A DNA stretch of 44,052 nt from an uncultured Ignavibacteriales bacterium (GTDB lineage Bacteria > Zixibacteria > MSB-5A5 > GN15 > FEB-12). The DNA lies in NCBI GenBank assembly GCA_964455535.1, contig CAYVWS010000002.1, positions 1 to 44,052 of the forward strand, given 5' to 3'. Below, one piece after another: positions 2,592 to 37,888 of the stretch. A model generated the notes under the pieces. It saw only the letters and a program-made list of their open reading frames with translations, searched no databases and was not told the origin of the DNA. The position numbers and the translations under genes are program-made. Numbering within the stretch: position 1 is the stretch's first letter; each line of letters starts with the position of its first letter.

Positions 2592-4439
2592 CTACTGGCA
2601 AGCTGCCGTCGGGGCGAAACTGATATAGAGATAGTCGATCAAGCCGGAGAGATCGGCAATGTCAATTCCAGGTTGGCCGTCGACATTGGCTTCTTTCGGG
2701 CAGCAAAGCGGTGCGAAGGTGATGTACAAATTGTCGATCAGCGCACTGAGGTCGCTTATGTCAACGCCGTTGCCCGAATCGCAATCGATATTTCCGGTTG
2801 ACCCGATACAACAACAGGCGTCGCCAATTCCATCAGAATTGGCATCTTCCTGCCACGGATTTGCGACCGCGGGACAGTTGTCGGTGCAATACACGCCGTC
2901 ACCGTCGAGGTCGGCACAGTCTTCAATTGTTATGAATTGATCGGCGGCCACCGAACTGCGGATCGATTGGAAGCCCGACGGCCAGCGCACGATGATCGAG
3001 TCAACGACCGTTGCGTCAAGAAGTCCGAAGTGCTGTTCGAGATTGGTCGAGAAGAAACCGGAGGTTGAAGTCACGGTTCGGTGCTGCCAGGTGGGGACAC
3101 CACCCAGAATGGCCTTTATTGAAATTCTTGCGCCGATCCCCGAAGCATTGTTTCCGCTGTAGCCACGACAAGCGATCTGAAGCCAATGGTTTCCATTGCC
3201 GGAGTTCTTCAGGAGACGATTGCGCGAACCGGGAGAGAAGTAGCCGTAGGTGACAAACAGGTCAAGATCGCCGTCGCGATCGTAGTCCCCCCACGCGGCG
3301 CCGTGTGAAGCATAGCCGCCGATTGAAGCAATCGAAACCGCGGCCGTGACATCGGTAAACGTACCGTCGCCATTGTTGCGAAACAACTTGTCGTCCGCGC
3401 TGGTTTGTTCGGAAACGAAAATGTCAAGGTCGCCGTCGTTGTCGTAATCGCCCCATGTCGCTCCAGTCGACACGTTGGAATTCGTGATGAGTGTGCCGGT
3501 GGCAGGATTGGTGACTTTAGAAAATGTGCCTGTTCCGTCGGCGTGATACAACATGTTCGGTTTGGCGCCGGCGATCCCGCCCCACGTGGTGAGAAACAGA
3601 TCATCGAATCCGTCGTTGTCGTAGTCGCCCCACGCCGGGAAGAGACCATCGGAGGAGTCGGCGGATAGTCCCGTAAGTGTGTCCGCGGTGAATTGAGCCG
3701 TGGATGTTTCGATCAAGAGATTTCGGAAGACCACGTCATTCTCATTAGCAACCGGCGCGCCGGTGCTCACAAAGAGATCGAGGTCGCCGTCACTGTCGAT
3801 ATCTGTCCAGGTTGGATACGAATAGTTGTGCAGGGTGGTAGCGACGGGCGCGGCGGTTTGAAGTGTAAAGGTCTCATTGCCGTTGTTGTGATAGAGTTCA
3901 AGGGTAGTGCCTGAGGTCGGGCCAACCACATCACGCGTACAAATGACTATATCGAGATATGAGTCATTGTCGTAATCGCCCCATGCGGCGGCATAATCAG
4001 AGCCGGACGTTGTCGTCATTGCTACACTGGGCTTGGTGAAGACTCCACCTCCGGAATTGTGATACAAGATATTGGTTGAGCCGGGATTGCAGACCAACAG
4101 GTCGGTTCGACCGTCGTTGTCGTAGTCGCCCCAGGTTTGGATCGCCGTCGATGTGAGATCGGTTGCCAGCGGAGCGGTTAGAGACTGGCTAAAACCGCCG
4201 GCGCCGTTATTCAGAAAAACCAGGTTCGCTGCGGCAGATGAGAATACTGCGGTCGAGACATACAGGTCGAGATCGTGATCGGCGTCGATATCGATCCAAC
4301 TGCACCCCTGACTTAAGAGGCCGTTGTTTAGTGTGATCCCCGAATCAACAGAAAAGGTTTGTCCCAGCGCCGAGGCGGCCACATAGAGAAAAGAGCATGT
4401 AATCAGGGCCAGGGCCCATACGATAACTGGTTTGGGCAT
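2592..4439 (-). CDS. secreted CRTAC1-like FG-GAP/VCBS repeat protein with ASPIC/UnbV domain, TSP3-like repeats and C-terminal dockerin-like module
   Basis: ORF trimmed to ATG 4439 (MPKPVIVWALALITCSFLYVAASALGQ signal peptide). Six WGDYDNDG(x)xDL-type FG-GAP/VCBS units. ASPIC/UnbV-like block (HWLQIACRG...GIGARISIKA...IVRWPSG). Thrombospondin type-3-like DLDGDGVYCTDNCPAVANPWQEDANSDGIGDAC. Terminal tag described separately. Confidence 0.85.
   Translation of the reverse strand: MPKPVIVWALALITCSFLYVAASALGQTFSVDSGITLNNGLLSQGCSWIDIDADHDLDLYVSTAVFSSAAANLVFLNNGAGGFSQSLTAPLATDLTSTAIQTWGDYDNDGRTDLLVCNPGSTNILYHNSGGGVFTKPSVAMTTTSGSDYAAAWGDYDNDSYLDIVICTRDVVGPTSGTTLELYHNNGNETFTLQTAAPVATTLHNYSYPTWTDIDSDGDLDLFVSTGAPVANENDVVFRNLLIETSTAQFTADTLTGLSADSSDGLFPAWGDYDNDGFDDLFLTTWGGIAGAKPNMLYHADGTGTFSKVTNPATGTLITNSNVSTGATWGDYDNDGDLDIFVSEQTSADDKLFRNNGDGTFTDVTAAVSIASIGGYASHGAAWGDYDRDGDLDLFVTYGYFSPGSRNRLLKNSGNGNHWLQIACRGYSGNNASGIGARISIKAILGGVPTWQHRTVTSTSGFFSTNLEQHFGLLDATVVDSIIVRWPSGFQSIRSSVAADQFITIEDCADLDGDGVYCTDNCPAVANPWQEDANSDGIGDACCCIGSTGNIDCDSGNGVDISDLSALIDNLYITFAPLCCPKEANVDGQPGIDIADLSGLIDYLYISFAPTAACQ
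2595..2816 (-). other. C-terminal Cys-clamped double EF-hand (dockerin-like) module, copy 1
   Basis: CCCIGSTGNIDCDSGNGVDISDLSALIDNLYITFAPLCCPKEANVDGQPGIDIADLSGLIDYLYISFAPTAACQ, the last 74 aa of the CRTAC1-like protein. Confidence 0.7.
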
Positions 4440-4543
4440 ATCGTCTACTTTCTGTGAGGGAGTCTGTATTGTAGATGGTACGGGGGCAAGATCGTGATGT
4501 TGCACCCACTGGCGTGCTGGAAGTGCTTTTCGCGCGTTTTCGC

Positions 4544-4581
4544 ACAAACGGCGGCTCTGCAGGGGCAGAGTCGCCGTTTGT
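4544..4581 (-). terminator. long intergenic hairpin downstream of the repeat-lipoprotein gene (no U-tract)
   Basis: acaaacggcggctctgc-aggg-gcagagtcgccgtttgt: 17-bp stem with one G.T position, 4-nt loop. Lies 20 nt beyond the stop at 4601. Neither strand has a T-run after it, so it is not a canonical intrinsic terminator. Confidence 0.35.
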
Positions 4582-11523: not shown

Positions 11524-13626
11524 TCAGATAATAAACATATCGGCAGTGCTGGTATTGTACTTGTTGCGCAGCACTTCTTCGCTTCGGGGATTGTATCTGA
11601 TCGCCAATTGGAGATATTTTGCCGCCGTGACAAGTTCGTTTTGGTCACCCGTCAAACCGGACATCGTTCGGTAGTAGATCGCCGCTAACAGATTGACCAC
11701 AAAGTCGGTAGGGTACACACGTACCAGAGTATCGACAATCGGGGCACAGTCGCGGATTCGTCCAGTGTGGGCCAGCCAATGATACAAATAAATCAGCGCG
11801 TTTCTATTGTGGGGCGCCGATTGCAGAGTTTCGCGAATCAGCGAATCAGGGGGGAGTTTTCCGCCAAAGGCCATGACCTCGGCGGCGCGCTCAAAGGCGG
11901 TCGGCTGATATTTAGCGGCCGTCTCGTTGCCGAACAGGTTGTACACCGGCACGACATAGTTGATGTTGTCGCGAATCCAGAAGCGGGCGATCACCGGCGC
12001 TGACGCAAAAATCGGGTTGTTCTTCTTCAAAGCCAGCCAGAGGTTGAGCGGCAGAGCGAGATGGGTGACGGGGTACTCGCGCAAAAGCTGTTCGCCCTCG
12101 CCGAGCGGCTGTTTGACAAACAGCGGGAAGGCGCGCAGGTCGTTGCCGCAGGTGATAGCCGGGCCGACCTGGCCGCTGATGACGGCGTCGGGGCCGAGGA
12201 GGCCGGCAAGATCACTGTTGGCGTCGCGAATTCCGTAGGTTCTCTTGCTGTACCAGTCGGAGTACAGGTATCCGTCGACAGCGATCGAACCAAGCAGAAT
12301 TGCGACCGCGACGTACTTCACCGTCGTTGCATTAACACTAAGTGATCTCCAAAACAGGAATGCGATTGCGGCTGTCAGCACTGCCGCGAGCGGGGCGATA
12401 TACCACACCCAGCGGAAATAGGTCCGTACCGACAGCGAGTCGATACTGAACGGTGTGACCGCGTGATACAAGAAATACCAGGTGAGCGCGAGCACGAGCG
12501 CTGCCTGCCACCAACTGACTTTGTTTGTCCGACGAACCATGGCCGGCGCGCGGGAGACCCAGTGTGCGGTCAGTATGACCATCGGAATAATCAGGATATA
12601 CTGGTACCGGAGCGGTCGATAGTTGAATACCGACAGAATGAGAATAGACCCGACCAGCCATGAGGCCGAGTAAATCTGTAGTTTACGAAGCGACTCGAGC
12701 GGCTCTTTGAAAAAGATCAGCCAAAGGAGCGCGACGAAACAACCGGCCGATACAAACGGAATGTACTTATGCAGGCCGGTGCGGCCGAATGAAAAGAGAT
12801 TTTCAAACGGCCCAAGCGGCAATTCAAGACCGTGCGGGAAACCGTGACCCTCGGTACCGTGTGTCCACAGAAACGAGGCCAGCTCGAACTTTCCGTGGAC
12901 CAAAAAGGATAGGGCAACGACAGACACTCCGGCGGTGGCGAGCGCCGCCAAAGAGAGTAGCCACTTCCCGGAATGGTTCTGGGAAATCCACCAGACAACC
13001 GGCGGAATTATCAATAGTAGTCCAAAGGCCTTGGTGAAAAAAGCGATTAGCGCGACGAGCAGTCCGATTGCAATCGCCGAATTGAGTTTGTCAGTCAAGC
13101 TCAGTGCCACAACAAAGAAGACTCCGGCGCCGAAGAGCAGGGCATTTTCCGAGAATGGAAATCGGCTGTAGATGATGAGCACGAAGCAGAAGGAAACAAG
13201 CAGCGCTGCCTGAATCGCGGCCATAGCGCTCAGTCTTCGCGCAAGAACGAGTAAGAAAAGAAGCGCCCCGAGTCCGCTGAGCAGAATACCGATGAATGTG
13301 CCCGTTGTTATCGAGACACCCATGACTTGGTAGGCGAGATACCCGACCCCGGAGATGAGAGATGTTTTGAACGCTTGCCAATGAGTGTATCCAAACAGAT
13401 CCCACTGACCGAATTCGACTTTGTTCTTGGCGAAGAGCGTAAGGTAGCCGCCGTCGGTGGTGAAATCCTGGCTGCCGTCGGCAAAGAAAGCCGGGGCGTC
13501 GGCTTCGGGGTCGAATGTGCGGAGGGCGATGCCGGCCGCAAAAATCAGAAGCACAATCACAACTACCCGCCAGTGGTGGCCTGAGGGGCTTGGAGAAACG
13601 TCGCTGTCGTTTTCTTTCGGCTTCAC
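11524..13626 (-). CDS. GT-C fold membrane glycosyltransferase (ArnT/PMT/GT39-like) with helical-repeat C-terminal domain
   Basis: Polytopic N-terminal ~500 aa with an early periplasmic-loop acidic motif (FFADGSQDFTTDGGY). C-terminal soluble TPR-like helices. Start uncertain: the track's TTG 13704 lies inside the upstream terminator stem/T-run, so I prefer GTG 13626 (TTG 13647 is also possible). Stop TGA (11526..11524) abuts the OPT stop. Confidence 0.6.
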   Translation of the reverse strand: MKPKENDSDVSPSPSGHHWRVVVIVLLIFAAGIALRTFDPEADAPAFFADGSQDFTTDGGYLTLFAKNKVEFGQWDLFGYTHWQAFKTSLISGVGYLAYQVMGVSITTGTFIGILLSGLGALLFLLVLARRLSAMAAIQAALLVSFCFVLIIYSRFPFSENALLFGAGVFFVVALSLTDKLNSAIAIGLLVALIAFFTKAFGLLLIIPPVVWWISQNHSGKWLLSLAALATAGVSVVALSFLVHGKFELASFLWTHGTEGHGFPHGLELPLGPFENLFSFGRTGLHKYIPFVSAGCFVALLWLIFFKEPLESLRKLQIYSASWLVGSILILSVFNYRPLRYQYILIIPMVILTAHWVSRAPAMVRRTNKVSWWQAALVLALTWYFLYHAVTPFSIDSLSVRTYFRWVWYIAPLAAVLTAAIAFLFWRSLSVNATTVKYVAVAILLGSIAVDGYLYSDWYSKRTYGIRDANSDLAGLLGPDAVISGQVGPAITCGNDLRAFPLFVKQPLGEGEQLLREYPVTHLALPLNLWLALKKNNPIFASAPVIARFWIRDNINYVVPVYNLFGNETAAKYQPTAFERAAEVMAFGGKLPPDSLIRETLQSAPHNRNALIYLYHWLAHTGRIRDCAPIVDTLVRVYPTDFVVNLLAAIYYRTMSGLTGDQNELVTAAKYLQLAIRYNPRSEEVLRNKYNTSTADMFII

Positions 13627-13766: not shown

Positions 13767-16493
13767 TCACGGACACATCTTGAGCGGAGTGAAGCTGATG
13801 TACAGGCGATCGATAAGAGCGGAGATATCGCTGATATCGATATTGCCGTCACCGTCGACATCCGCCGCGTGTTCGCAGCAAATCTCGTTAAGCGAGATGT
13901 ACAGACCGTCGATCAGCGCCGAGAGGTCGGAGATATCCGAGCCGCCGGCCGGGTCGCAGTCAATGTTTCCAGAGGTGCCAATGCAGCACGGCGAGTTGCT
14001 CAGGGCTCCCGGGCAACCAACGCCGTCGCCGGCATACACTCCACCAGCCATGTCGCATTTGACCTTGGTGGTCGTGATGCAAGTACCGTCTGGCAAGCAG
14101 CAGCAACCGGTCGGAGTACCGAGCGTCGGGCAGCTGGTCGGTGAGCAGGGCGCACCGATAGTGAAGCTGACTCCGCCAACCGCAGCACAGTCGGCCGCTG
14201 TCGCCTGGATACAACCGCCGCCATTCGGCAGACAGCAGGCGCCGGTCTGGCCGATAGGTTCGCAGGTCGTCGCAAGGCACGGCACGTTGTCGCCCTTGTA
14301 GACGCCACCGAGAGCCGCGCAGTCAGCCGCGGGGATGACGACACATCCACCGTTGGGCAGACAGCAGGCGCCACGGAGCGGCTTGCACGGATTAGGCGTG
14401 CAGGAGGATCCGTTGCCCTGCCAAGCGCCGTGGAGGTTCTTACAATTGTTGGCATTGGTGATGATGCAGGTGCCGTTCTCCAGACAGCAAGCGCCCTTTG
14501 ACGGCGGCTTGCAGCGGATGAGGGCACAGCTTGTGCCCGGACCCTGCCAGATACCTGAGGCCTGATTGCATTTCAGCTTGGTGGTCTGAACGCAGGTGCC
14601 ATCCGGCAGACAGCAAGCGCCTTCTTTGACTCTCGGGCACAAGGTCGGTGAGCAGGGGCTTCCTGCACCGTACCAGGTACCTTTGGCCTTTTTGCACTCG
14701 TCGGCAGTCATCTGAACGCACGTACCGTTCGGCAGACAGCAGGCGCCGTCAAGGTGCTGAGGACACTGGAGGCCCGGTGTGGCACAATTGGTGCCGGGGC
14801 CGAAGAAAATGCCGTGCTTCGACTGGCAATCCATCGGCGTGGCCTGCACGCAAGATCCGTCGGGCAGACAGCACGCGCCGGTTTCGTCGTGCGGACACGG
14901 CACGGCCGGATCGCAGGAGCTTCCGTCACCGCCGTAGATGCCGTGCATCTTTTCGCAATCGACGGCCGAAACTGTGACGCACGCGCCGGTCGGCAGACAG
15001 CACGCGCCGATCTTCTGTTCGCACGGGGTCGGAGGCAGGCAGTTGGAACCGTCGCCCAAATAGAGACCACCGGCGGCCTGACATTTCACGAGTGTAGTGA
15101 TGATACATCCTGCGCCGGGGATACAGCAGCCGCCTTCTTTAGGAGGCGGACAGCCATCCGGACCGCACACACTTCCGTCACCCATGTAGAGTCCGCCTTG
15201 CTTGACACAGTCAGCCGCAGTCATGATTACGCAGGCACCACTGGGCAGACAACACGCGCCCGTTTGGACACCGTTGCAGATGAGCGGAGAGCAAGGTGTA
15301 TAGTCACCGTAGTAGGTTCCGCCCGCCTGCTGACACGCCGTTTGAGTCAGCATTTGGCACGGGAGACCGGGCACACAGCAAGCTCCGCGCGGTGGGTCGC
15401 AGTTGACCGTAGCACAGGGGACGCCGTCGCCGAAGTAAACACCGCCGAGTTTCTTACATTCATCGGCGAGCATTTCGATACAACCGATACCGGCCGCGGT
15501 TTGCAGACAGCAGGCGCCTTTCTTGGGACCGCCCGGACAGGTAACTCCGGAACAAGGGATATTGTCGCCCTGATACACGCCGCCGTGCGACTGGCAGTCC
15601 GCCATCGAAACCATAACGCAGGTTCCGTTCGGCAGACAGCAGGCGCCACGGATAACGCCGCCGTCACACAGGCCGGGAGTACACGGTACGCCGTCGCCCT
15701 GATAGATTCCGCCATGCTTCTGGCAGTCGGAAGCGGTGGCGATTACACACTGTCCGGTAGTCGGAATACAGCATGCGCCGGTCGCCACTTGGGTGCTGTC
15801 GCAATGACCCTGACTGCAGGGAACATTGTCCCCGCGATAGACGCCGCCGGCCTGAGCGCACTGGGCGGCCGTAATCATCGCGCAGCTGCCGTCGGGCAGA
15901 CAGCAGGCGCCTCGCGGCGGTGTGCCGCATTGAATGGTCGCGCAGGTCCCGCCGGGGAACCAGGTGCCATGACCATTCGCGCACTCGGAGGGAAGATTGG
16001 TGACGAAACACTGGCCGTTCGGCAAACAGCAAGCACCGTCTTGTACGCACACGTTCGGTGTGGTGCAGCTAGTGTTGTCACCCATGTAGTAGCCGTTCTG
16101 CTGGGCGCAGGTGGCAGCGTCGGTTTGGACGCATCCACTTAGAAGACAGCAGGCGCCGGTCGCCAATACAACGGTACCGGTCATGCCGAGATGGATTGTG
16201 CACTCATACGGCCAGGGCCCGGGGCCATCGGCCGCGACGAACACTTGTGTGTATGAGCCCGAAGAAAACGGACCCGAGTTCCAGGGTTTCGGAGCCCCGG
16301 TACGGGTGGTCGTGTGGGAGAACCCGTCGAGATTGACCCATTTGACGGTGTCGCCATACGCAACGGTGACCGTCCCGGGTACAAACGCGAAATTCTGCAG
16401 GTTTACCGTATGGACGGTCGCCTGCGCCTGTCCTGTACAAATCAGTGCCAGAAGCAGCAGACCTGTACAGCAGGTCAGAAGCTTTCTCAGCAT
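13767..16493 (-). CDS. secreted cupredoxin - 17x Cys6-repeat - dockerin-like protein
   Basis: 908 aa. ATG 16493 with GGAGGG upstream. Signal peptide MLRKLLTCCTGLLLLALICTGQAQA. Domains annotated separately. Confidence 0.9.
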   Translation of the reverse strand: MLRKLLTCCTGLLLLALICTGQAQATVHTVNLQNFAFVPGTVTVAYGDTVKWVNLDGFSHTTTRTGAPKPWNSGPFSSGSYTQVFVAADGPGPWPYECTIHLGMTGTVVLATGACCLLSGCVQTDAATCAQQNGYYMGDNTSCTTPNVCVQDGACCLPNGQCFVTNLPSECANGHGTWFPGGTCATIQCGTPPRGACCLPDGSCAMITAAQCAQAGGVYRGDNVPCSQGHCDSTQVATGACCIPTTGQCVIATASDCQKHGGIYQGDGVPCTPGLCDGGVIRGACCLPNGTCVMVSMADCQSHGGVYQGDNIPCSGVTCPGGPKKGACCLQTAAGIGCIEMLADECKKLGGVYFGDGVPCATVNCDPPRGACCVPGLPCQMLTQTACQQAGGTYYGDYTPCSPLICNGVQTGACCLPSGACVIMTAADCVKQGGLYMGDGSVCGPDGCPPPKEGGCCIPGAGCIITTLVKCQAAGGLYLGDGSNCLPPTPCEQKIGACCLPTGACVTVSAVDCEKMHGIYGGDGSSCDPAVPCPHDETGACCLPDGSCVQATPMDCQSKHGIFFGPGTNCATPGLQCPQHLDGACCLPNGTCVQMTADECKKAKGTWYGAGSPCSPTLCPRVKEGACCLPDGTCVQTTKLKCNQASGIWQGPGTSCALIRCKPPSKGACCLENGTCIITNANNCKNLHGAWQGNGSSCTPNPCKPLRGACCLPNGGCVVIPAADCAALGGVYKGDNVPCLATTCEPIGQTGACCLPNGGGCIQATAADCAAVGGVSFTIGAPCSPTSCPTLGTPTGCCCLPDGTCITTTKVKCDMAGGVYAGDGVGCPGALSNSPCCIGTSGNIDCDPAGGSDISDLSALIDGLYISLNEICCEHAADVDGDGNIDISDISALIDRLYISFTPLKMCP
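13770..13991 (-). other. C-terminal Cys-clamped double EF-hand (dockerin-like) module, copy 2
   Basis: PCCIGTSGNIDCDPAGGSDISDLSALIDGLYISLNEICCEHAADVDGDGNIDISDISALIDRLYISFTPLKMCP, the last 74 aa. Confidence 0.7.
13992..16163 (-). repeat. 17 tandem ~42-44-aa cysteine-rich coding repeats (GACC units)
   Basis: Units start GACCLPDGSC / GACCLPNGTC / GGCCIPGAGC / GCCCLPDGTC. Consensus by eye: G-A-C-C-[LIV]-P-x-G-x-C-x7-C-x3-G-G-x-[YWF]-x-G-x-G-x2-C-x3-5-C. Six Cys per unit. DNA copies are diverged. Confidence 0.85.
16164..16418 (-). other. amicyanin/plastocyanin-like type-1 copper (cupredoxin) domain
   Basis: YGDTVKWVNLDGFSHTTT ... WPYECTIHLGMTGTVVL gives the His...Cys-x2-His-x2-Met ligand set with amicyanin-type spacing. 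Confidence 0.65.
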
Positions 16494-16916
16494 AGTCCCT
16501 CCGTGAAATTAGGTTGTGAGATATCGTGTGAGTTGTGAGTTGTTTCGTGAATGAGAAGATTAGAGAAATCGAGAGCGGAAAACGCAAAGGTGAACAGGAC
16601 GGCAACTTGACCCGGCCGACATCGACGATCGCAACAGTGACTGTCAACGAGGCGATTCATACACAGACGCGCAGCGCCGAAATTATTCGTGACGCCAGTT
16701 TCTTTCAGTTCTGCCGAAGGCCGGCGGTTTTCGATGGTACGTATGGTATTCTCCACACGCCGGTCCACGCGGCGCGGATGAGGGATGAGATTACCAATGT
16801 GTAAGAACTGTTTTCCGACTTGAAACTGGAGTAAATGTAACCATTTAGTCCATATCGTGTCAAGACAATTCTTTAGCCGTAATCACACACAAAAGTAATA
16901 TTTCGAGTTCGGGAAA

Positions 16917-16945
16917 TTGAACTTTGGGTGAAAGTCGGGTATACT
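16917..16945 (+). promoter_or_regulatory. sigma-70-like promoter for the VKOR-DsbA operon
   Basis: TTGAAC (16917..16922) - 17 nt - TATACT (16940..16945), about 27 nt upstream of ATG 16972. The short leader has no obvious SD. Confidence 0.4.
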
Positions 16946-16971
16946 GTACGTAGATTCTTGTCAATACCCAT

Positions 16972-18837
16972 ATGAATCGAAAACCGAGCCGCACATCGCC
17001 AGCCGCCAACCCATCGAGCCGTCTGCTTGCTGCGACGGCGATTGCCTTATTTGTTGCCGCTGCCGCCGCGGCCGTCATGTCGATCTACCATATTTGGTCG
17101 ATTACACTCCCCGGCTGTGGGCAGGGCGGCGGGTGCGAATGGGCGACCACCGGCCCGTACAGCAAAGTGTTAGGTGTGCCGGTTGCATTTTTGGGAGCGG
17201 CGTATTTTGCCGCCGGCTTGTGCCTTTTGGTACTATCTCGGCAAAGCTATCCCGACAAAGTGTGGATCTGGATTGTGCGAGCGGGGGCGGTGGCGTCGCT
17301 TGTCTTTGTGGGCATCATGCTTGCCAACAGTCGCATCTGCCTCTGGTGTGCGACTGTCCACACGGCCAATCTTATTCACTGGGCGGTGGCCGAGCGGCTT
17401 GTCAAAGGCGGTCGTCGGTCGAGGTCGGGTGATAGTAAGAATCTGACTATATCGGCACTTGCCGGGGCCGTCGTTTTGGCGGGTCTGTTCATGGGAAAGA
17501 TGTCACTGGCCGGAAAAGTCGAAGAAGCTAATCGGGCGAAGGGAATCGAATCGATCAACCGAATCGGGGCCGATACTGTCAATCAATCCGTTCCGAGTGC
17601 GCAAACGGGTTCGCCCGAGCCGGCGGTGCAGACTTCGGATGCGGCTGCATCCTCACTTCGATTCGGCGGTCGCTACTGGGAGGGGAACCCGAACGCTCCG
17701 GTTCGGTTGGTTGTTTTCCAGGATTATCAGTGTAAGCTGTGTTTCGAAGTCGAAGGTGTTATCGCTAAGCTGCTGGCGGCGCGAAACGACGTTGCGTTTT
17801 CTGTCAAACAGTGGCCGTTTGATGCGGCGTGCAATCGGTACATGCTCGGATCGAGCATACATCCCGGGGCGTGCGAGGCATCCAAAGTCGCCGAGGCGGC
17901 CGGATTAGTCGGGGGCACAAAAGCGTTTTGGGGGATGCACCATTGGCTGGTTGATCGGGGAGGCCAGTTCACACCGGCCGATTTGAAAAAGGAATTGGAT
18001 GCGCTTGGGGTCGATGTCGATGAGTTCGGGGTCACGTTTAACGGCACTGAACTCGACAGCTTAATTCAGCTCGATATCGAAGAGGGAATGGCGTTCGGCA
18101 TTACCTATACACCGATGATCTTTGTTAACGGCTATCAGGTTGAGGGGTGGCAGTCGGCGGGAGTGCTTCCGGCGGCCATCGATCGGGCGGCGCAGATAGC
18201 AAAGAAATTTCCGAGAATGAATGACCGCCCCGATCTGGCGCTCGATATGCAGTATCGCAACTGGCAGAGCGCGCCGACCGTCGATCTGAAACTGCGGCCT
18301 GATGAGCTAGTGCGGGGCAAGGCCGATGCGCCGACCACAGTTCTTGTGTATGGCGATCTGACCTGCGTGTATCATGCCGCTGCCCGCAAAACACTGAATC
18401 AAACGCTGGGTGTATTCAAAGATGTGCGATTCGTGTTCCGTGATTTTCCACTGGATAAGAACTGCAATCCGCTGGTTAAGCAGGATATTAACCCGCGTGC
18501 CTGCGAAGTGGCGCGCTGGACCCATGCAGTGCGTCGATTGGGCGGCGATAGTCTGTATTGGCGGGCGCACGACTTTGTCGTCTTGAGTCGTGATCACCTC
18601 GAATCGCTTACCGTTCAAAATCTCAGCGACCTTGTCGGCATCGAAGCCAATCGCATTCTGGAAGTCGCTAATTCTCCTCAGGTGGCGAATGACATACAGG
18701 CCAATCTTGATCTCGCGATTGCTGCCGGTGTGAATCAGTCGCCGACCATATACGTAAATGGCAAGCAGGTAGCCGGCTGGCGCACGCCGGGGCTTCTTTG
18801 GAAAGTTATTCAGGCTGCGACCAAAGGAGGGAGTTGA
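16972..18837 (+). CDS. VKOR (vitamin K epoxide reductase-like) membrane domain fused to two DsbA-like thioredoxin domains
   Basis: 621 aa. VKOR loop cysteines PGCGQGGGCEW and TM active site CLWC. First DsbA-like domain FQDYQCKLCFEVEG (CxxC). Second, YGDLTCVYHAARK, has CxxH instead of CxxC. Both end with the ...TP(T/M)I(F/Y)VNG... motif of DsbA-type domains. Confidence 0.8.
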   Translation: MNRKPSRTSPAANPSSRLLAATAIALFVAAAAAAVMSIYHIWSITLPGCGQGGGCEWATTGPYSKVLGVPVAFLGAAYFAAGLCLLVLSRQSYPDKVWIWIVRAGAVASLVFVGIMLANSRICLWCATVHTANLIHWAVAERLVKGGRRSRSGDSKNLTISALAGAVVLAGLFMGKMSLAGKVEEANRAKGIESINRIGADTVNQSVPSAQTGSPEPAVQTSDAAASSLRFGGRYWEGNPNAPVRLVVFQDYQCKLCFEVEGVIAKLLAARNDVAFSVKQWPFDAACNRYMLGSSIHPGACEASKVAEAAGLVGGTKAFWGMHHWLVDRGGQFTPADLKKELDALGVDVDEFGVTFNGTELDSLIQLDIEEGMAFGITYTPMIFVNGYQVEGWQSAGVLPAAIDRAAQIAKKFPRMNDRPDLALDMQYRNWQSAPTVDLKLRPDELVRGKADAPTTVLVYGDLTCVYHAAARKTLNQTLGVFKDVRFVFRDFPLDKNCNPLVKQDINPRACEVARWTHAVRRLGGDSLYWRAHDFVVLSRDHLESLTVQNLSDLVGIEANRILEVANSPQVANDIQANLDLAIAAGVNQSPTIYVNGKQVAGWRTPGLLWKVIQAATKGGS

Positions 18838-20345
18838 TGCGACGGGCGGTCGCGCTGCTCGCTTTGGTTTCCCTATGTTGTGCGGCTCATTCCGAGGCCG
18901 CTGTTCAGTTTGTCTGGTCGGGGGCCGTTACGCCGACCTCGGCTCGTGTCAACGGCAAGGTAAGCGTCGATAGTGCGCTTGTGCGGCTGGCATACACTGA
19001 CCAATCAGATTTCTCCGCGCTTTCATTTTCGACAATTGACACCGCGATTACGGCGAAGAATAACCGGGTCGTGTCGCTTTCGGTCACCGGCTTAACGCCG
19101 AACATTCAATACTACTATGCGCTTGAAGTAGACGGGGTAGTGGATTTGAGCGTGACCGGCAGGTTCAGGACATTTCCGTCGGGGGTCGCATCATTTTCGT
19201 TTGCGCTTGGTTCGTGCGCCTGGACCGGATCCAATGCAACCACATTTCAGACTATCCGGCAGTTGGATCCGCTCTTTTTCTTCCATCTGGGCGATTTCGA
19301 CTACGAAAATATTGCGGTGAACGACCGCAATGTGTACCGCCAGACTTTCGAGACCGTACTGGCGTCACCGGCTCAATCGCAGCTATACAGAAATGTACCG
19401 ATTGCGTACATGTGGGACGATCACGACTATGGGCCCAATAATTCCGACTCGCTGGCGCCCGGACGATTAGCCGCGCGATTGACGTATCAAGAATACGTTC
19501 CGCATTATCCGCTTGAGGCGGGGAGCGGCGATGTGGCAATTTATCAACGGTTCGATGTCGGCCGGGTCAGATTCTTGGTTTGTGATTCCCGTTCAGCGCG
19601 GTCCCCGTGGACAGCCGCCGACAACGCGCAGAAGACCATGCTGGGCGAGTCGCAGAAGGCGTGGTTCAAAGACCAACTCATTCGGGCGCGCGATAGCGCA
19701 GCGTTGATCGTGTGGGTTAATACACTGCCGTGGATCGGGACAACCGGAGATGACGGTTGGTATTTGTACACCAACGAACGGCGCGAACTCGCCGATTTCA
19801 TCCGTGACAATCAGATTTACAACCTTTGCCAGATATCGGGTGACGCCCACATGGTGGCGATCGACGACGGCACCTATTCCGACTATGCGGTCGGCGGTGG
19901 CGCCTGCTTTCCGGTCTTTCATGCCGCGCCGCTTGACCGGACACCGTCGCCCAAAGGGGGACCGTACAGCCACGGCATGTTTCCCGGGACCAACCAATTC
20001 GGACTGTTCACGGTCGTCGACTCGGGAGTTGGAGTGCCGATGAAAGTGATCTGGAGCGGCCGACTGGAGAACAATCAGGAATTGGTGCACTACGAATTTT
20101 TTCCCGGCGAATGTCACTCGTGCTGCGATGTGTTGACCGGAAATGTCGACTGTGACAGTGAAGGCGGAGTGGATATTTCCGATATCTCGGCGCTCATTGA
20201 CTATCTCTATATTTCATACCGACCGCTGTGCTGTAGTCATGCGGCTGACACCGACGCTGACTTCAAGCGTGATCTGTCCGATCTGACTCGACTTATCGAC
20301 CGGCTCTACATATCTTTTGAGCCATTGGCGCAGTGCGGCCAGTAA
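18837..20345 (+). CDS. PhoD-like alkaline phosphatase with C-terminal dockerin-like module
   Basis: ORF 18798.. trimmed to ATG 18837 (AGGAGG upstream; TGATG overlap with the VKOR-DsbA stop). Signal peptide MRRAVALLALVSLCCAAHSEA. Metallophosphatase/PhoD blocks FFHLGDFDYEN, MWDDHDYGPNN, ISGDAHMVAIDD. Confidence 0.85.
   Translation: MRRAVALLALVSLCCAAHSEAAVQFVWSGAVTPTSARVNGKVSVDSALVRLAYTDQSDFSALSFSTIDTAITAKNNRVVSLSVTGLTPNIQYYYALEVDGVVDLSVTGRFRTFPSGVASFSFALGSCAWTGSNATTFQTIRQLDPLFFFHLGDFDYENIAVNDRNVYRQTFETVLASPAQSQLYRNVPIAYMWDDHDYGPNNSDSLAPGRLAARLTYQEYVPHYPLEAGSGDVAIYQRFDVGRVRFLVCDSRSARSPWTAADNAQKTMLGESQKAWFKDQLIRARDSAALIVWVNTLPWIGTTGDDGWYLYTNERRELADFIRDNQIYNLCQISGDAHMVAIDDGTYSDYAVGGGACFPVFHAAPLDRTPSPKGGPYSHGMFPGTNQFGLFTVVDSGVGVPMKVIWSGRLENNQELVHYEFFPGECHSCCDVLTGNVDCDSEGGVDISDISALIDYLYISYRPLCCSHAADTDADFKRDLSDLTRLIDRLYISFEPLAQCGQ
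20118..20342 (+). other. C-terminal Cys-clamped double EF-hand (dockerin-like) module, copy 3
   Basis: SCCDVLTGNVDCDSEGGVDISDISALIDYLYISYRPLCCSHAADTDADFKRDLSDLTRLIDRLYISFEPLAQCGQ, the last 75 aa of the PhoD-like protein. Confidence 0.7.
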
Positions 20346-21957
20346 GTTGAAAAGATCGGATAGTTGCGAAGTGACATCGACGGCCATTACAGATAAGCCC
20401 GTGTTTCACGAGGGCGAAAAGAACGCCTTGCAAAAGGTGCGCGGCTGGATTGAACGCCATCCGCTTGCAACCGTTCTCATCGCGGCTTCGATTTTTCGAC
20501 TGATCGCTGTCATCTGGTCAAAGGGGTTTGTGCACTCGGATGATCACTACGATACAATCGCCATCGCCTATGACTGGATAAAGACCGGACTGTATGGCCC
20601 CGACGGATTTGTACATTGGCAAGAACAGCCGAGAATTGCCTCGACGCGCTTTCCGCTGTATCCGTTCATGCTCTTTGGAGTGATGAAGTCGTTTCAACTG
20701 TTCGGGGTGCAGAGCTTGGACACGATGATGTACGGCATTCGGCTGGTGCACGCCGCGATTTCCCTGATTCCCGTAGTTGTCACCTACTCGATTGTGCGAC
20801 GATTTACCGGCAGCGAGCGATGGGGGATGGCGGGCGGGTTGTTTGCAGGGCTCCACTTCGCCATGCCGTTTCTCGGTGTCCATAATCTGATTGAATCGGT
20901 CGGCGGTAATATCTGGATGGCGGCGCTGTACGGATTCTATCGCTATCGCGAGTCGCGTAATGTCAGTTGGCTCTGGATGGCAGGGCTGGCGACCGGGATC
21001 GCGTGGATGATCCGCTTTCAGATCGCCTTCGCGGTTTTGCCGATTCCATTCATCCTTTGGTACGAAGATCGAAAGATGAGGGGCGCAATACACTATAGCT
21101 TCGCGGTCGGAGCAATGATACTCTCAGCGTGGGTAACTGATCTGATTTTCAAAGAGGAGTTTGCCGGGACGACGCTGACCTATCTGCGCTCCAGCGTCGA
21201 TCTCAATCCGCTGTATTCGACGATTCCAGCGATGTATCTCATCATACTCATAGTCGCATTCATTCCCCCGATATCACTGATGCTGTTTTGGGAATCATTG
21301 CGACCGTCGTTCGTGCGGCAGCATCGTATCCTCGTCTTCAGTTTTCTGTCGTTTCTCGTCGGGCACTGGCTGCTGGCTAATCAGCAAGAGCGGTTTATTT
21401 TCCCGATGCTCCCCGTCTGCATTTTGATGTTCGTGCTGGCGTTGTGGCATCGACGTCAGACCAAAGGATACACTGTTGGAAAGGCGAGCTGGTTACGCGG
21501 TGCGGTTGGCGCGGCGATCGGCGTGAATGCCATACTGTTAGTGTTTTTCAGCGTTGGCTACGCTCACAAGGGGCTTATTGAGCCGGTCATCGATATCGAC
21601 CGCGCGTCGCCGGGCAGTCGCGTGCTGTATCTGCAGCCGTCAATGCGGCCGTGGATTGCCAAAGAATACGCGGCGAGTGAACTTAGGGCCGAGTATGTTA
21701 AGAATTGGCGTGAGTTCGCCGGATTGCGATTATTCGGGCAAACGGAGAATGCATTTGATTACTTTGTGGTGTATCCGACGCGAGAAGTGCCGTTGTCTGA
21801 ATGTCTGGATTCGCTGACCGGCACGTTTGGCGAAGTGACATTGTGGCGGGAATATACTGCCTCGTGGTATGACCAGGCGCTGCACCTATTGAACCCGCGC
21901 CATAACGACAATTTCGCCGCGTATGTGTATCGCCGACCGATGTCGGCTTCTCAGTGA
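20317..21957 (+). CDS. GT-C fold membrane glycosyltransferase (Alg9/PimE/GT22-like)
   Basis: Polytopic membrane protein. First-loop acidic motif FVHSDDHYD resembles the HxDE motif of GT22 mannosyltransferases. Start uncertain: TTG 20317 (overlaps PhoD), TTG 20347, GTG 20371 or GTG 20434, none with a good SD. Confidence 0.6.
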   Translation: MSHWRSAASKLKRSDSCEVTSTAITDKPVFHEGEKNALQKVRGWIERHPLATVLIAASIFRLIAVIWSKGFVHSDDHYDTIAIAYDWIKTGLYGPDGFVHWQEQPRIASTRFPLYPFMLFGVMKSFQLFGVQSLDTMMYGIRLVHAAISLIPVVVTYSIVRRFTGSERWGMAGGLFAGLHFAMPFLGVHNLIESVGGNIWMAALYGFYRYRESRNVSWLWMAGLATGIAWMIRFQIAFAVLPIPFILWYEDRKMRGAIHYSFAVGAMILSAWVTDLIFKEEFAGTTLTYLRSSVDLNPLYSTIPAMYLIILIVAFIPPISLMLFWESLRPSFVRQHRILVFSFLSFLVGHWLLANQQERFIFPMLPVCILMFVLALWHRRQTKGYTVGKASWLRGAVGAAIGVNAILLVFFSVGYAHKGLIEPVIDIDRASPGSRVLYLQPSMRPWIAKEYAASELRAEYVKNWREFAGLRLFGQTENAFDYFVVYPTREVPLSECLDSLTGTFGEVTLWREYTASWYDQALHLLNPRHNDNFAAYVYRRPMSASQ

Positions 21958-21964: not shown

Positions 21965-22300
21965 CTATCTGACTCGTTCCGGGTCGGGGAAGTCGCGGAA
22001 AAATCCGGAGCGGACATCTTTCACAATCGAATAGACACGGGCATGGCGGGTTTCGATCTCGCCTGAGCGCGTGGCGACAATCTTGAACGCCGAATCAAGC
22101 TGGGCCATGTCCTTGGTTGAGATGATGATCTGAAACTCACCGAGTTCTTCGGGGCCGAAACCGAATTTGCGGCGCATCACCTGATACGAAACGATTTTGC
22201 CGTTGTCGCGAAGATACCCGAGATATCCTTCGAGGGCATCACACAGTTCCAGATCCTTGTGACCGTCTTTTAGATTACACCAGACGAAGAGATGATCCAT
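21965..22300 (-). CDS. small conserved hypothetical protein (DUF6614-like)
   Basis: 111 aa. ATG 22300 with AAGGA upstream. MDHLFVWCNLKDGHKDLELCDALEGYLGYLRD...ELGEFQIIISTKDMAQLDSAF...FRDFPDP matches my memory of the DUF6614 pattern. The family call is from recollection only. Confidence 0.55.
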   Translation of the reverse strand: MDHLFVWCNLKDGHKDLELCDALEGYLGYLRDNGKIVSYQVMRRKFGFGPEELGEFQIIISTKDMAQLDSAFKIVATRSGEIETRHARVYSIVKDVRSGFFRDFPDPERVR

Positions 22301-29689: not shown

Positions 29690-30508
29690 TTACTTGCGGC
29701 GGCGAATCACGCCCGCGCCCAACAGGCCGATGCCGAAGAGCAGCATCGAGGCCGGTTCCGGTACGCCGGTCTGGCAGCGGTACTTGGTGTCCATCCAGTC
29801 ATTGCCGCATCCCAGATTTACGTGGAAATTGAGTTCCTTGAAATCGCCGAAGCAGGATTTGTTGATTTTGAATTCCCACACGAAGGTGTCGCCATTTCCC
29901 GGACCGGTAAATCCGGTTTCCTTAAAGGAATTGTCGTAGGTCTTGGAGAATTCGATATTCGCCTTTTTGGAGGCGTTGCTGCCGATTTCATGGGCGCCGG
30001 CTGCGTTCTTGATGGTCGTGTTCTTGTAGTACGAGCCATTCACGTTCTGGATGTAGTTCCAGCTGTTATTCGTCCGGTAGAAGCCGGTGGAACCGGATTC
30101 GTTGGATTTCTGCTTGGTATAGTCGCTGATCGAAGACTTCACGTCGATTGCGTACTGGAACGGATTGCCGCCGTCGACACCGATGAAGATATCGCCTAAG
30201 CGAAAGTTCTGGTTGTAGCTCGTCGAGTGGGCCAGATATCCGAAGGAATTGGTCATCGCGACATACACATAGTTGCCTTTTTCGCGCACCTTGAATCCCT
30301 CGAGATCGAACTTCTCGCCGCCTTCGCCTTTAGTGCCCGGAGACGGGAGATGGCCGACGTTGTTCGGGTAGTTGAACGGAGCCCAGTTGTTGTTGTAATC
30401 AAAAGGGTTCTCGCTGTTGTTAAACACGGTGTTGTAGTGATAGCCATACGCGCCGGCTGTCGCCGCCGCGAACATCACTACAAGCGTTGTCAAAATCAGT
30501 TTTTTCAC
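29690..30508 (-). CDS. PEP-CTERM sorting-domain surface protein
   Basis: 272 aa. GTG 30508 with GAGAGG upstream. Signal peptide. C-terminus GVPEPASMLLFGIGLLGAGVIRRRK is a canonical PEP motif + TM helix + basic tail. Confidence 0.9.
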   Translation of the reverse strand: MKKLILTTLVVMFAAATAGAYGYHYNTVFNNSENPFDYNNNWAPFNYPNNVGHLPSPGTKGEGGEKFDLEGFKVREKGNYVYVAMTNSFGYLAHSTSYNQNFRLGDIFIGVDGGNPFQYAIDVKSSISDYTKQKSNESGSTGFYRTNNSWNYIQNVNGSYYKNTTIKNAAGAHEIGSNASKKANIEFSKTYDNSFKETGFTGPGNGDTFVWEFKINKSCFGDFKELNFHVNLGCGNDWMDTKYRCQTGVPEPASMLLFGIGLLGAGVIRRRK

Positions 30509-30528: not shown

Positions 30529-30697
30529 AAGAAGTTACACTATTTCACGGTCTTTATAGGCAATTGTCGTGCCGGGATTTTCGCATCAGTTTTTGGCCGA
30601 TTTATTATTGCTATGCAATGACTTACGGTGGTGCATGTGCGCCCTTTGGAGTTATCAACATAGCTGGAATGCATAGATCGACAAAAAGTTGCTCAAA

Positions 30698-30721
30698 ATA
30701 TGTGCAACCGCATGCACATAT
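30698..30721. promoter_or_regulatory. operator-like palindrome upstream of the portal gene
   Basis: ATATGTGCA-accgca-TGCACATAT (9-bp perfect arms, 6-nt spacer) in the 324-bp divergent intergenic region, about 110 nt upstream of ATG 30833. Confidence 0.35.
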
Positions 30722-30832
30722 CATTGCCGGACAATGTGCTGGCCCAAGCCGAATCATAGCCAGTTTTGGCAATTTTGCTACAAGGTTGGTGCATGGCGCC
30801 GGATCGGCGGGAGACTAAAAAAAGGAGTCTAT

Positions 30833-32092
30833 ATGTCGTCACATGATCTGGGAGCTGCTGGTTCAAATGAAGCAGAAAGAGAATTGAAGTTCGCTTCGTT
30901 TTCGGAAAACTCGAGAAATCAGAACGGAAAGCAGCTGCTTAACATGCTGCGATTGTCTCGCGGCGATCTGATGAGCGGCCGTCATCGCACTCAGCTCTAC
31001 AGATTCCTGACCAACAATGTGCCGGTCGTGCATTCCTGTATCTGGACCTGGGTAAAGTTGGCGTCGGCCCCGGGTGAGTATGTCGTAGAATCGTCATCCG
31101 GAACTCAGGTCGAGTCTCGGGCCGCCGACCGACTCGCGCGACTCTCGGACGGATTGTATTCCGGGACGACTAACCAGCGAGTGGGGCTCGCGTTTCTTCT
31201 TTCGGAGTTGTTCACGTCGCTTTTTCGCGACGGAATGTTTGTCGGATACCTGCGTGTCAAACCCGACCAAAGCGGGGTGGAGCAGCTTCTTCCGATCGAT
31301 GTCGCCAGTCTTCGTTTTGAGTCGGACTCGGGGCGCACCGGCTTGTATCTGGATCAGAATAATCAATTAGTATCGCTGAAGCGGCCCGATGTCTTCGTCA
31401 TTCCCTATAGCGGCTCGTCGGACGCGCCGTACGGTCGTTCACTTTTGCAGGCAGTTCCATTTGTCGCGTACATCGAGCAACAGTTGATTGACGATATGCG
31501 TCGCAGCAGCCACAATTCCGGATTCCAACGTTTCCATGTCAGAATAAGCCCGCCGGAACGAATGTCGGGAGAGTCCGATTCGGCCTACACCAATCGGGTA
31601 AACGCCTATTTCGATTCGACCGTCGAGATGTTCAGGAGTTGTGAAGTCGACGACAACCCGGTGACGTGGAACAATGTTGAGGTCAGTTCGATCGGCGCCG
31701 ACCGCCGGCGCGACACCTCCAGCAGCTGGTTTATGACACACCGCGCGATGGTGGAGGAAATCTGTGCCGCGACTAATCTGTCGCCGTTCTTGTTGGGATA
31801 TTCGTACGGCGCCACGACGACCTGGTCGGGATTCAAATTCGATGTTGTCATGCGACAGGTGCGTGCGGTTCAGGCGCAGGCCTCGCAATTTTTGGAATGG
31901 ATCGGCAATATCGAGCTGGCGCTGGCGGGTATCGACGCCCGTTGCCGTTATCGATTCGATAACTCATTTGCCTATCAAGTAAAAGACGACATTGCAGTGC
32001 AAACTGCCCGGATCGACAATCTCTTGAAATTATATCAGGCCGGATTGATAGACGCTGCCACCGCCAAAAAAGAGACGTGGCGAATACTCTGA
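30833..32092 (+). CDS. phage portal protein (putative)
   Basis: ORF 30689.. trimmed to ATG 30833 (AAAGGAG upstream). 419 aa. C-terminal block EEICAATNLSPFLLGYSYGATTTWSGFKFDVVMRQVRAVQAQASQFLEWI fits the portal clip/stem pattern. Its stop is overlapped by the TerL start. Confidence 0.6.
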   Translation: MSSHDLGAAGSNEAERELKFASFSENSRNQNGKQLLNMLRLSRGDLMSGRHRTQLYRFLTNNVPVVHSCIWTWVKLASAPGEYVVESSSGTQVESRAADRLARLSDGLYSGTTNQRVGLAFLLSELFTSLFRDGMFVGYLRVKPDQSGVEQLLPIDVASLRFESDSGRTGLYLDQNNQLVSLKRPDVFVIPYSGSSDAPYGRSLLQAVPFVAYIEQQLIDDMRRSSHNSGFQRFHVRISPPERMSGESDSAYTNRVNAYFDSTVEMFRSCEVDDNPVTWNNVEVSSIGADRRRDTSSSWFMTHRAMVEEICAATNLSPFLLGYSYGATTTWSGFKFDVVMRQVRAVQAQASQFLEWIGNIELALAGIDARCRYRFDNSFAYQVKDDIAVQTARIDNLLKLYQAGLIDAATAKKETWRIL

Positions 32093-33411: not shown

Positions 33412-33456
33412 CTTTCCGCCTGCCAACGTTGTTCGAAATCGTTTCACCCTGCACAC

Positions 33457-33497
33457 AAAAAAATGCACCTCCTGAGGGAAGGGAACTCAGGAGGCAC
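33457..33497 (-). terminator. intrinsic terminator of the antisense PEP-CTERM mini-gene
   Basis: Minus-strand RNA GUGCCUCCUGAG-UUCCCUUCC-CUCAGGAGGUGC (9 Watson-Crick pairs, extendable with G.U) then A-UUUUUUU (plus-strand A-run 33457..33463). Confidence 0.7.
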
Positions 33498-33522
33498 TGA
33501 GGGGAGGAGGGTTGGGGGAATG

Positions 33523-36259: not shown

Positions 36260-36343
36260 CAGTGTGGGGCATCGCCTCCGACCCAGCGGGACAGTTGTCC
36301 CGGTCGGTCCACCCAACAATAGAAAAACAATAGGAGAACACAG

Positions 36344-37884: not shown

Positions 37885-37888
37885 GACC

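Follow-up and report, generated by a model that had tools for sequence, protein, structure and literature searches.

A VKOR-DsbA-DsbA' fusion encoded beside a cysteine-rich GACC-repeat protein in Zixibacteria and Planctomycetota

Introduction

In many bacteria, VKOR together with a DsbA-like partner replaces DsbB/DsbA as the periplasmic generator of disulfide bonds. A stretch of Zixibacteria DNA of 44,052 nt (contig CAYVWS010000002.1 of assembly GCA_964455535.1), referred to below as the window, encodes a protein in which a VKOR domain is fused to two DsbA-like domains (VKOR-DsbA-DsbA', the fusion or oxidase). Back to back with its gene lies that of p1, a secreted protein extraordinarily rich in cysteine, the long stalk of which is built of tandem six-cysteine units named here GACC units. 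The part of the window under study spans positions 13,767-21,957. The question that this locus raises is whether an oxidase is encoded there next to a protein that it folds, whether the surrounding genes belong to the same system, or whether the proximity has no functional meaning. An initial annotation, made from the window alone, had proposed that five neighbouring genes are co-localised for the building of one extracellular assembly. The comparative data presented below point instead to a two-gene pair, in which the oxidase fusion is encoded beside what is probably its heaviest client. We regard this explanation as reasonably probable.

Oxidase and GACC-repeat genes are neighbours in two phyla

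For a survey of the fusion, one genome per GTDB species was scanned with an alignment of the oxidase (A1); a single oxidase protein used as the query gave no match. The scan returned 245 relatives of the fusion. The best 80 of them come mostly from Planctomycetota/Phycisphaerae, with some from Zixibacteria and Eisenbacteria and one from Kiritimatiellia, and among these best 80 loci no assembly showed more than one fusion. Database annotations assign homologues of the fusion to Candidatus Zixiibacteriota. The synteny sample consisted of 88 fetched loci encoding the fusion, 86 of which are distinct (13 from Zixibacteria and 73 from Planctomycetota and allied taxa). All open reading frames (ORFs) of the 88 loci, with flanks of ±10 kb, were scanned with a hidden Markov model of the GACC unit.

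Of the 88 fetched loci, 18 contain GACC-repeat genes. When distinct loci only are counted, such a gene is the immediate neighbour of the oxidase in 16 of 86 (8 of 13 in Zixibacteria, 8 of 73 in Planctomycetota and allied loci). Of the 18 GACC genes within ±10 kb, 16 adjoin the oxidase, where 8-10% would be expected under uniform placement. The binomial p for this positional bias is 2e-9 in Zixibacteria and 3.5e-7 in Planctomycetota; with obvious sister loci collapsed, the values become 6e-4 and 2e-5, respectively. The positional test replaced a Poisson enrichment estimate, which mixed near and far flanks. The linkage of the fusion to GACC genes is beyond chance, and the adjacency is non-random across two phyla.

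The pair is not arranged in one way. Three arrangements occur in Zixibacteria: the two genes diverge, or they share a strand with the GACC gene either upstream or downstream of the oxidase. Orthologues of p1 adjoin the oxidase in L001, L002, L008, L009, L013 and L006. In L013 the GACC gene stands immediately upstream on the same strand. In L005 and L006, where the oxidase identity is 44-45% and the flanks are otherwise unrelated, the oxidase gene is followed directly, in the same orientation, by a GACC gene whose product has the C-terminal tail. The GACC gene is the next gene upstream in eight planctomycete loci (L022, L032, L045, L049, L062, L070, L076 and L077), divergent in all but L049. 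The planctomycete partners have no cupredoxin domain and end in a GC-type dockerin (NCBIfam NF041540, 33-34.6 bits vs. a cut-off of 29); the partner in L005 is also devoid of cupredoxin. Hence the conserved partner of the oxidase is the stalk and not the copper head. Two of the partners, both from Phycisphaerae (L045:8215-9870 and L062:8171-9826), consist of an N-terminal domain of ~330 amino acids without a family match, four GACC units and a GC-type dockerin.

In a neighbour-joining tree of the oxidase the GACC-positive loci are dispersed. This dispersal and the variety of gene arrangements support an oxidase-client pair. The test of neighbourhood conservation that had been suggested with the initial annotation therefore gives a positive answer for the fusion and a GACC-repeat gene, both in distant Zixibacteria and in Planctomycetota/Phycisphaerae. 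Fusion and GACC repeat occur together in Zixibacteria, Planctomycetota/Phycisphaerae and Eisenbacteria.

The oxidase

The features of the locus are collected in Table 1. The 621-residue fusion proposed earlier, with its CGQGGGC, CLWC, CKLC and CVYH motifs, was recovered in full, including the Pfam domains. Hydropathy and an AlphaFold2 model (predicted local distance difference test, pLDDT, 86.6; helices at residues 16-42, 71-88, 96-118, 124-145 and 155-197) give a topology of five transmembrane (TM) helices followed by two periplasmic domains of the DsbA fold. In 22 aligned homologues of the fusion (26-79% identity), residues C49, C55, C123, C126, C254, C257, C287 and C301 are invariant, as is T380-P381 of the cis-Pro loop. 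The CxxC site of domain 2, on the other hand, varies (TCVYH, TCPFN, TEAFN, QSEYS and others): the second Cys is absent in 22 of 22 sequences and the first in many. The three-domain architecture is kept in 39 protein clusters.

Table 1. Features of the window discussed in the text, with their positions (nt), strand and basis of assignment
Feature	Position	Strand	Basis
p1, head-stalk-anchor secreted protein	13767..16493	minus	ORF translation, 908 aa
p1 signal peptide, residues 1-25, MLRKLLTCCTGLLLLALICTGQAQA	16419..16493	minus	single N-terminal hydrophobic segment; kept in 7 orthologues; putative cleavage site
p1 cupredoxin head, residues 26-112	16158..16418	minus	type-1 Cu ligands H60, C98, H101, M104
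p1 stalk, 17 tandem GACC units, residues 113-835	13989..16157	minus	unit list and alignment
p1 dockerin-like tail with Cys, residues 836-908	13770..13988	minus	CC..GN.DCD..DISDLSALID.LY..CC..D.DGDG.IDISD..LID.LY...C
Conserved core of intergenic region	16744..16945		alignment with L001, L008, L002
Putative sigma-70-like promoter toward p1, TTGACA-18-TACATT	16863..16834	minus	promoter scan
Putative sigma-70-like promoter toward oxidase, TTGAAC-17-TATACT	16917..16945	plus	promoter scan
p2, VKOR-DsbA-DsbA' fusion, 621 aa	16972..18837	plus	three Pfam domains over cut-off
VKOR domain, residues 23-139	17038..17388	plus	PF07884, 42.6 bits vs. 27.5
VKOR loop C49/C55, CGQGGGC	17116-17136	plus	motif starts at residue 49
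VKOR active site C123-L-W-C126	17338-17349	plus	CLWC at residue 123
Fifth TM segment of fusion	17440-17496	plus	hydropathy and AlphaFold2 helices
DsbA-like domain 1	17683..18195	plus	PF01323, 68 bits; T380-P381 loop; C287/C301
Domain 1 catalytic C254-K-L-C257	17731-17742	plus	CKLC at residue 254
DsbA-like domain 2, without CxxC	18298..18810	plus	PF13462 (Thioredoxin_4), 79.8 bits
CVYH of DsbA-like domain 2, residue 465	18364-18375	plus	degenerate CxxC position
PhoD-family phosphatase with p1-type tail (20112-20342)	18837..20345	plus	PF09423, 84.6 bits vs. 27
PMT_2 (GT-C-type) membrane glycosyltransferase	20317..21957	plus	PF13231, 41 bits vs. 26.1; at least 6 hydrophobic segments
Polytopic membrane protein, family not recognised	11524..13626	minus	about 10-12 hydrophobic segments
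FG-GAP/ASPIC-UnbV (CRTAC1-like) protein with p1-type tail at 2595-2819	2592..4547	minus	tail motif; 10 kb away; unnoticed in the initial annotation
Terminase large subunit (Terminase_6N)	32077-33411	plus	E 1.6e-5
Phage_capsid_4	36745-37884	plus	E 2.9e-7
Bit scores are followed by the Pfam cut-off where one is given.

Foldseek aligned the DsbA domains of the fusion with BdbD (3eu4, TM-score 0.80), PaDsbA2 (4n30), 3gyk and Wolbachia DsbA, the TM-scores ranging from 0.7 to 0.8; for domain 1 against BdbD, 3gyk and PaDsbA2 they were 0.76-0.80. A match of the oxidase model to the tandem thioredoxin (Trx) domains of UGGT (TMq 0.33, root-mean-square deviation of ~10 Å) was set aside as too weak for anything beyond analogy.

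As judged from its sequence, the fusion is predicted to be a membrane disulfide generator with a tethered oxidase and with quinone-coupled activity. Its wide distribution and its mostly unrelated gene contexts fit a general enzyme better than one reserved for a particular assembly, and it probably serves as the general periplasmic disulfide generator of the cell. Domain 2 is DsbA-like in fold and probably non-catalytic as a thiol oxidase.

For the architecture of VKOR-Trx proteins, the structure of Synechococcus VKOR is available as a comparison. VKOR homologues with C-terminal thioredoxin-like domains are already known (PMC4555120). The fusion shares with them a VKOR core of four helices that carries a CxxC and a pair of loop cysteines, a fifth TM helix that leads to a periplasmic Trx-fold oxidase, and the presumed flow of electrons from the substrate through Trx/DsbA and VKOR to quinone. 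It departs from them in its tethered partner, a complete domain of the DsbA type that has a helical insert and the extra conserved Cys pair C287/C301, and in the addition of a second, duplicated DsbA-like domain which has lost its CxxC. A limited literature search found no description of the three-domain VKOR-DsbA-DsbA' form. As an enzyme, the fusion is new only in this tandem DsbA/DsbA' arrangement.

The secreted partner p1 and the GACC repeat

Cysteine makes up 112 of the 908 residues of p1 (12.3%), close to the approximately 110 counted by hand in the initial annotation. The protein is composed of a signal peptide, a cupredoxin head, a stalk and a dockerin-like tail. The head had been described as an amicyanin-like type-1 copper domain, and it is a cupredoxin, although its score against Pfam Copper-bind (PF00127), 18.9 bits, falls just under the cut-off of 21.2. 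The orthologue in L013 passes this cut-off with 22.2 bits. The head of p1 matches pseudoazurin TIGR02375 (E 1.3e-5) and aligns to plastocyanin 1bxu (E 1.2e-4), with the C-x2-H-x2-M loop and the copper ligands in register; all four ligands, H60, C98, H101 and M104, are invariant across 7 p1 orthologues (alignment A4). As for the stalk, spacing and alignment agree on the 17 tandem six-Cys units reported before. The units are 39-44 amino acids long (~42) and follow the pattern G-A-C-C-x4-5-C-x7-C-x13-C-x4-5-C, the sixth Cys being missing from the last unit. A scan of the p1 gene with Tandem Repeats Finder detected no tandem array in the DNA. The units are therefore old and diverged, and a recent expansion of the repeats was rejected.

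The copper head, the stalk and the anchor of p1 suggest that it may be an electron-transfer protein displayed at the cell surface, where the anchor would hold it and the head would act in electron transfer. The disulfide need of p1 would be about 50, that is, three for each of the 17 units plus those of the tail.

The repeat reaches far beyond this protein. A search with p1 gave >2,500 homologues, and the median number of GACC units in the best 120 proteins was 14. The heads joined to GACC arrays include S8 and M12 peptidases, pectate lyase, a CotA-type multicopper oxidase, DUF7901, LamG, FlgD_ig, Por_Secre_tail and Dockerin_1. When a three-unit profile was run against 1.84 billion proteins, 8,802 representative proteins matched at E≤1e-3 and 1,776 at E≤1e-30. 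In profile searches no Pfam or NCBIfam model covers the GACC repeat, and the curated family of known role that the initial annotation had reckoned with as a possible outcome did not appear.

All six Cys are retained in 98% of 1,367 GACC units taken from 120 homologues, so that the disulfide pairing could not be deduced from joint loss of cysteines across these units. The AlphaFold2 model of three units (pLDDT 89.5) shows a compact unit that combines one beta-hairpin with a short helix and a strand. A Foldseek search of this model against the PDB gave no significant fold match; the best one, to iRhom/ADAM17 (E 0.087, TM-score 0.31), was discarded as meaningless. Each GACC unit is predicted to hold three disulfides. 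On the sequence evidence, the repeat appears to be a general-purpose structural module or linker that is not specific to this locus. EGF-like repeats offer a functional parallel, as they too are units of ~40 amino acids with six invariant Cys, placed in tandem between the functional head and the anchor of a protein. The parallel goes no further than function: GACC units have no sequence-family or PDB match, and the CC doublet that opens each unit is distinctive.

One paralogous GACC protein of Zixibacteria (L088:4647-8500, contig CXWL01024134.1 of GCA_001458795.1) has 1427 amino acids, a DUF7901 head, 18 units and a p1-type tail. Its gene adjoins those of two large proteins with faint matches to multihaem cytochromes (MtrC/MtrF-like, cytochrome c3/c7) and of a Fer4/Pyr_redox protein. 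Such a context makes a link of stalk proteins with extracellular electron transfer possible.

The dockerin-like tail

The C-terminal tag that had been recognised on p1 and PhoD is present on both, and it is dockerin-like only. Against Dockerin_1 (PF00404) the tail of p1 scores 16.7 bits when the whole protein is searched and 20.4 bits on its own, in either case below the Pfam cut-off of 22.9, and no tail of the window matches the GC-type dockerin NF041540 at E≤1. The tail contains two Ca-loop-plus-helix segments, DCDPAGGSDISD followed by LSALIDGLY and DVDGDGNIDISD followed by ISALIDRLY. Both recur in the consensus of 21 Zixibacteria tails, CC.G..GN.DCD....VDISDLS.LID.L.IS....CC....D.D.....VDISDL..LID.L.I...PL..C, which has about six conserved Cys (CC, C, CC, C). 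What the tail shares with dockerins (Dockerin_1, NF041540) is the tandem of two segments, each a Ca loop (D-x-D-x-D-G-x-x-D-x-x-D) and an amphipathic helix, its place at the extreme C-terminus and its occurrence on diverse secreted proteins. Unlike them, the Zixibacteria tail misses both models and carries about six conserved Cys. Binding of Ca by the tail would be expected from its loops.

Carriers of the tail are, among others, PhoD, FG-GAP, CarboxypepD_reg and cupredoxin-only proteins. Within the window it is shared by three proteins: p1, PhoD and the FG-GAP protein. Because the last of these lies 10 kb away and still carries a p1-type tail, the tail is a genome-wide module. The 75-residue tail, searched against a set of 5.8 billion proteins, yielded 4 candidates only, without informative names. 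A literature search on Zixibacteria dockerins, the GC-type dockerin, Cys-rich dockerin proteins of Phycisphaerae and Zixibacteria cupredoxin/VKOR found nothing relevant.

In several metagenome loci (L092, L096, L107, L117 and L104) small proteins consist of a cupredoxin head fused straight to the tail, without a GACC stalk; L104 has four tail-bearing genes in 12 kb. Since such proteins exist, the stalk is an optional insert between head and anchor. Proteins with stalk and tail but with heads other than cupredoxin also exist. The general architecture thus appears to be a head, an optional GACC stalk and a dockerin-like anchor. A 272-residue protein of the window (29690-30508, minus strand) has a C-terminal PEP-CTERM motif (PF07589, 30.6 bits), so that at least two kinds of C-terminal signal for sorting or anchoring, PEP-CTERM and the dockerin-like tail, are in use in this genome.

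The divergent intergenic region

The p1 and oxidase genes diverge from a gap of exactly 478 bp (16494-16971), the spacing given in the initial annotation. A block of ~135 nt (16744-16877) is conserved far above its surroundings in L001 and L008, and partly in L002; further on, GTCGGGTATACT is conserved at 16934-16945, 27 nt upstream of the oxidase start. Both blocks coincide with promoter-like hexamers (Table 1), and the longer one is placed directly upstream of a predicted p1 leader of ~340 nt, whose start it overlaps. A riboswitch or structured leader was rejected, since the intergenic region and 5' leader have no Rfam match and no unusually stable fold (folding z-score 0.34). The shared conserved core with its putative back-to-back promoters suggests coordinated expression of p1 and the oxidase.

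A proposed enzyme-client pair

We propose that the fusion acts as the enzyme and p1 as its client. The residues, topology and folds of the fusion come from the present analysis, while the electron path is taken from established knowledge of VKOR and DsbA. On this path, electrons from the substrate thiols would be accepted by the tethered DsbA domain 1 (C254-K-L-C257), handed over to the VKOR loop cysteines C49/C55 and passed from them through the active site C123-L-W-C126 to the membrane quinone. The CxxC-less domain 2 would probably hold or chaperone the substrate. After export by its signal peptide, p1 would acquire about 50 disulfides from the fusion, which would make it the most demanding client that a cell could encode; its modules would be a blue-copper head, a rigid disulfide-rich stalk and a Ca-binding anchor with Cys of its own. 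The position of the oxidase gene beside p1 plausibly couples oxidising capacity to demand.

Several observations weigh against this explanation. No GACC neighbour is present in 65 of the 73 planctomycete loci and in 5 of the 13 Zixibacteria loci (two of these five, L010 and L011, are on contigs too short to judge), and most fusion loci stand in unrelated gene contexts. Thousands of GACC proteins are encoded away from an oxidase. The contig of L003 also has a full gene for cupredoxin, GACC stalk and tail (L089), ~24 kb away from the oxidase; the adjacency is therefore frequent but dispensable. A scan for cupredoxin heads produced 29 loci, many on short contigs, with no oxidase within 6 kb. In addition, the six Cys of a GACC unit could in principle bind metal.

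If these facts are given full weight, there may be no functional link at all: the oxidase would be a housekeeping enzyme, and its adjacency to GACC genes would be a relic of an ancestral gene order or a consequence of how abundant GACC genes are. The majority of oxidase loci without a GACC neighbour, the very large number of GACC proteins and the broken pairing in L003/L089 and L007 are all in keeping with such a view. However, 16 of the 18 GACC genes within ±10 kb stand directly at the oxidase, the arrangements differ between lineages, which argues against one frozen ancestral order, and the flanks are otherwise unrelated. We consider the absence of any link unlikely.

The view taken in the initial annotation was that all five genes form one island, building a disulfide-locked, Ca-dependent and possibly glycosylated extracellular assembly. 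Three proteins do share the Cys-bearing dockerin-like tail, further tail-bearing genes flank the oxidase in L005 and L006, PhoD is translationally coupled to the oxidase (TGATG), with the coupling kept in L002, L003, L008 and L009, and PMT_2 follows directly after PhoD. These links do not, however, extend beyond close relatives. L001, L002 and L008 show the whole neighbourhood, from an OPT transporter to GT1, in collinear order; L009 keeps PhoD and PMT_2 beside the oxidase, and L003 keeps only PhoD. Adjacency of PhoD is confined to the close relatives L001, L002, L003, L008 and L009 and is lost below about 52% oxidase identity; PMT_2 is present in L002, L008 and L009 and absent in L003 and more distant loci. 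Collinearity among close relatives is ordinary and carries little functional information. Moreover, the supposed second GT-C protein has no detectable GT-C signature, many further proteins carry the tail, among them the FG-GAP protein 10 kb away, and no cohesin-like partner was found among the window proteins scanned, a few smaller ORFs having been left out of the scan. Hence the part of the five-gene proposal that stands is the link between the fusion and the GACC-repeat gene. The part that does not stand concerns PhoD, PMT_2 and the membrane protein, which are collinear only among close relatives, and the tail and repeat, which are not locus-specific. The glycosylation that the proposal allowed for finds no support in these data. 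We find a five-gene island improbable, and PhoD, PMT_2 and the other neighbours appear to be simply collinear genes of a family-level clade. PhoD would probably be a client of the oxidase only through the shared Cys-bearing tail, and other tail-bearing neighbours are plausible clients through theirs.

That the repeat protein is instead a redox or metal partner (a thiol/disulfide buffer, a metal store for copper, or a cupredoxin head that exchanges electrons with the oxidase system or extracellular acceptors, the stalk being a spacer) seems quite improbable: the invariance of the four type-1 copper ligands in 7 orthologues, the very high Cys density and the multihaem cytochrome-like genes (faint Pfam matches) beside the GACC paralogue in L088 speak for it, but the planctomycete partners and that of L005 have no cupredoxin, the repeat links dozens of unrelated enzyme heads as fits a structural module, and AlphaFold2 gives it a compact, confident fold.

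A bolder extension of the enzyme-client pair may be formulated, which we put forward as rather unlikely. The GACC unit would be an undescribed three-disulfide stalk fold, the biogenesis of which has co-evolved with the three-domain oxidase, and domain 2 would be a dedicated holder or proof-reader of CC-containing units, both traits being common to Zixibacteria, Planctomycetota/Phycisphaerae and Eisenbacteria. The outcome in Zixibacteria would be an electron-transfer appendage at the surface, with the stalk keeping a blue-copper head and a Ca-dependent anchor tens of nanometres apart.

Relation to known oxidase-substrate pairs and significance

Accessory Dsb oxidases encoded beside the genes of their substrates include DsbL/DsbI with the arylsulfate sulfotransferase AssT and SrgA in the pef fimbrial operon (PefA). 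The locus described here resembles both in that an oxidase gene stands beside the gene of a disulfide-dependent exported protein, and it resembles the DsbL/DsbI-AssT type in that the adjacency is kept across lineages, here in 16 of 86 distinct loci from two phyla. The DsbL/DsbI pair may be dedicated to specific substrates (PMC6067686). In contrast to DsbL/DsbI-AssT, the oxidase here is one fused protein of the VKOR type and only possibly an accessory paralogue; the client is a repeat protein with about 50 predicted disulfides; and the pairing spans two phyla without being obligatory. The VKOR and DsbA families are known, as is a Dsb-type oxidase encoded beside its substrate, and no new principle is involved. 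The new elements are the cross-phylum pairing of the oxidase with GACC genes, the tandem DsbA/DsbA' fusion and an abundant stalk repeat without a structural relative.

The pair provides a testable enzyme-client system for oxidative folding in phyla without a genetic system, in which one fused protein would give about 50 disulfides to one adjoining substrate. Many secreted enzymes of Planctomycetota, Eisenbacteria and Zixibacteria have the abundant and uncurated GACC repeat as their stalk, and thousands of proteins now labelled 'hypothetical' would be better annotated with a new domain model for it. The second DsbA-like domain without CxxC is a candidate substrate-holding module. Finally, a putative surface-display system is suggested by the head-stalk-anchor plan, in which the anchor is a Cys-bearing dockerin-like tail in Zixibacteria and a GC-type dockerin in planctomycetes.

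Other genes of the window

The start of the tagged PhoD gene overlaps the oxidase stop as was noted before, the ATG at 18837 sharing its A with the TGA stop of the fusion. Compared with the Bacillus PhoD equivalog NF058638, the protein scores 55 vs. 1000 and is not an equivalog. The GT-C glycosyltransferase reported after PhoD was borne out by its PMT_2 match of 41 bits. The ORF at 11524-13626, read earlier as a second GT-C enzyme, did not fare so well: it has no Pfam match at E≤5, no NCBIfam match and no PDB sequence match at E≤10 (phmmer), and BLASTP against the PMT_2 protein gives E 0.22, i.e., no similarity. Its identification as GT-C is thus unsupported, and only the multi-TM topology is compatible with it.

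A DUF6614 protein (21965-22300, minus strand, 117 bits) is kept downstream of the oxidase/PhoD region in L002, L003 and L008, and DUF6614 is also located ~4 kb from the oxidase in the planctomycete locus L033. Further along the window, positions 30689-42415 (plus strand) form a phage-like block with a terminase and a capsid gene (Table 1), surrounded by same-strand ORFs without family matches; it is probably a prophage or prophage remnant.

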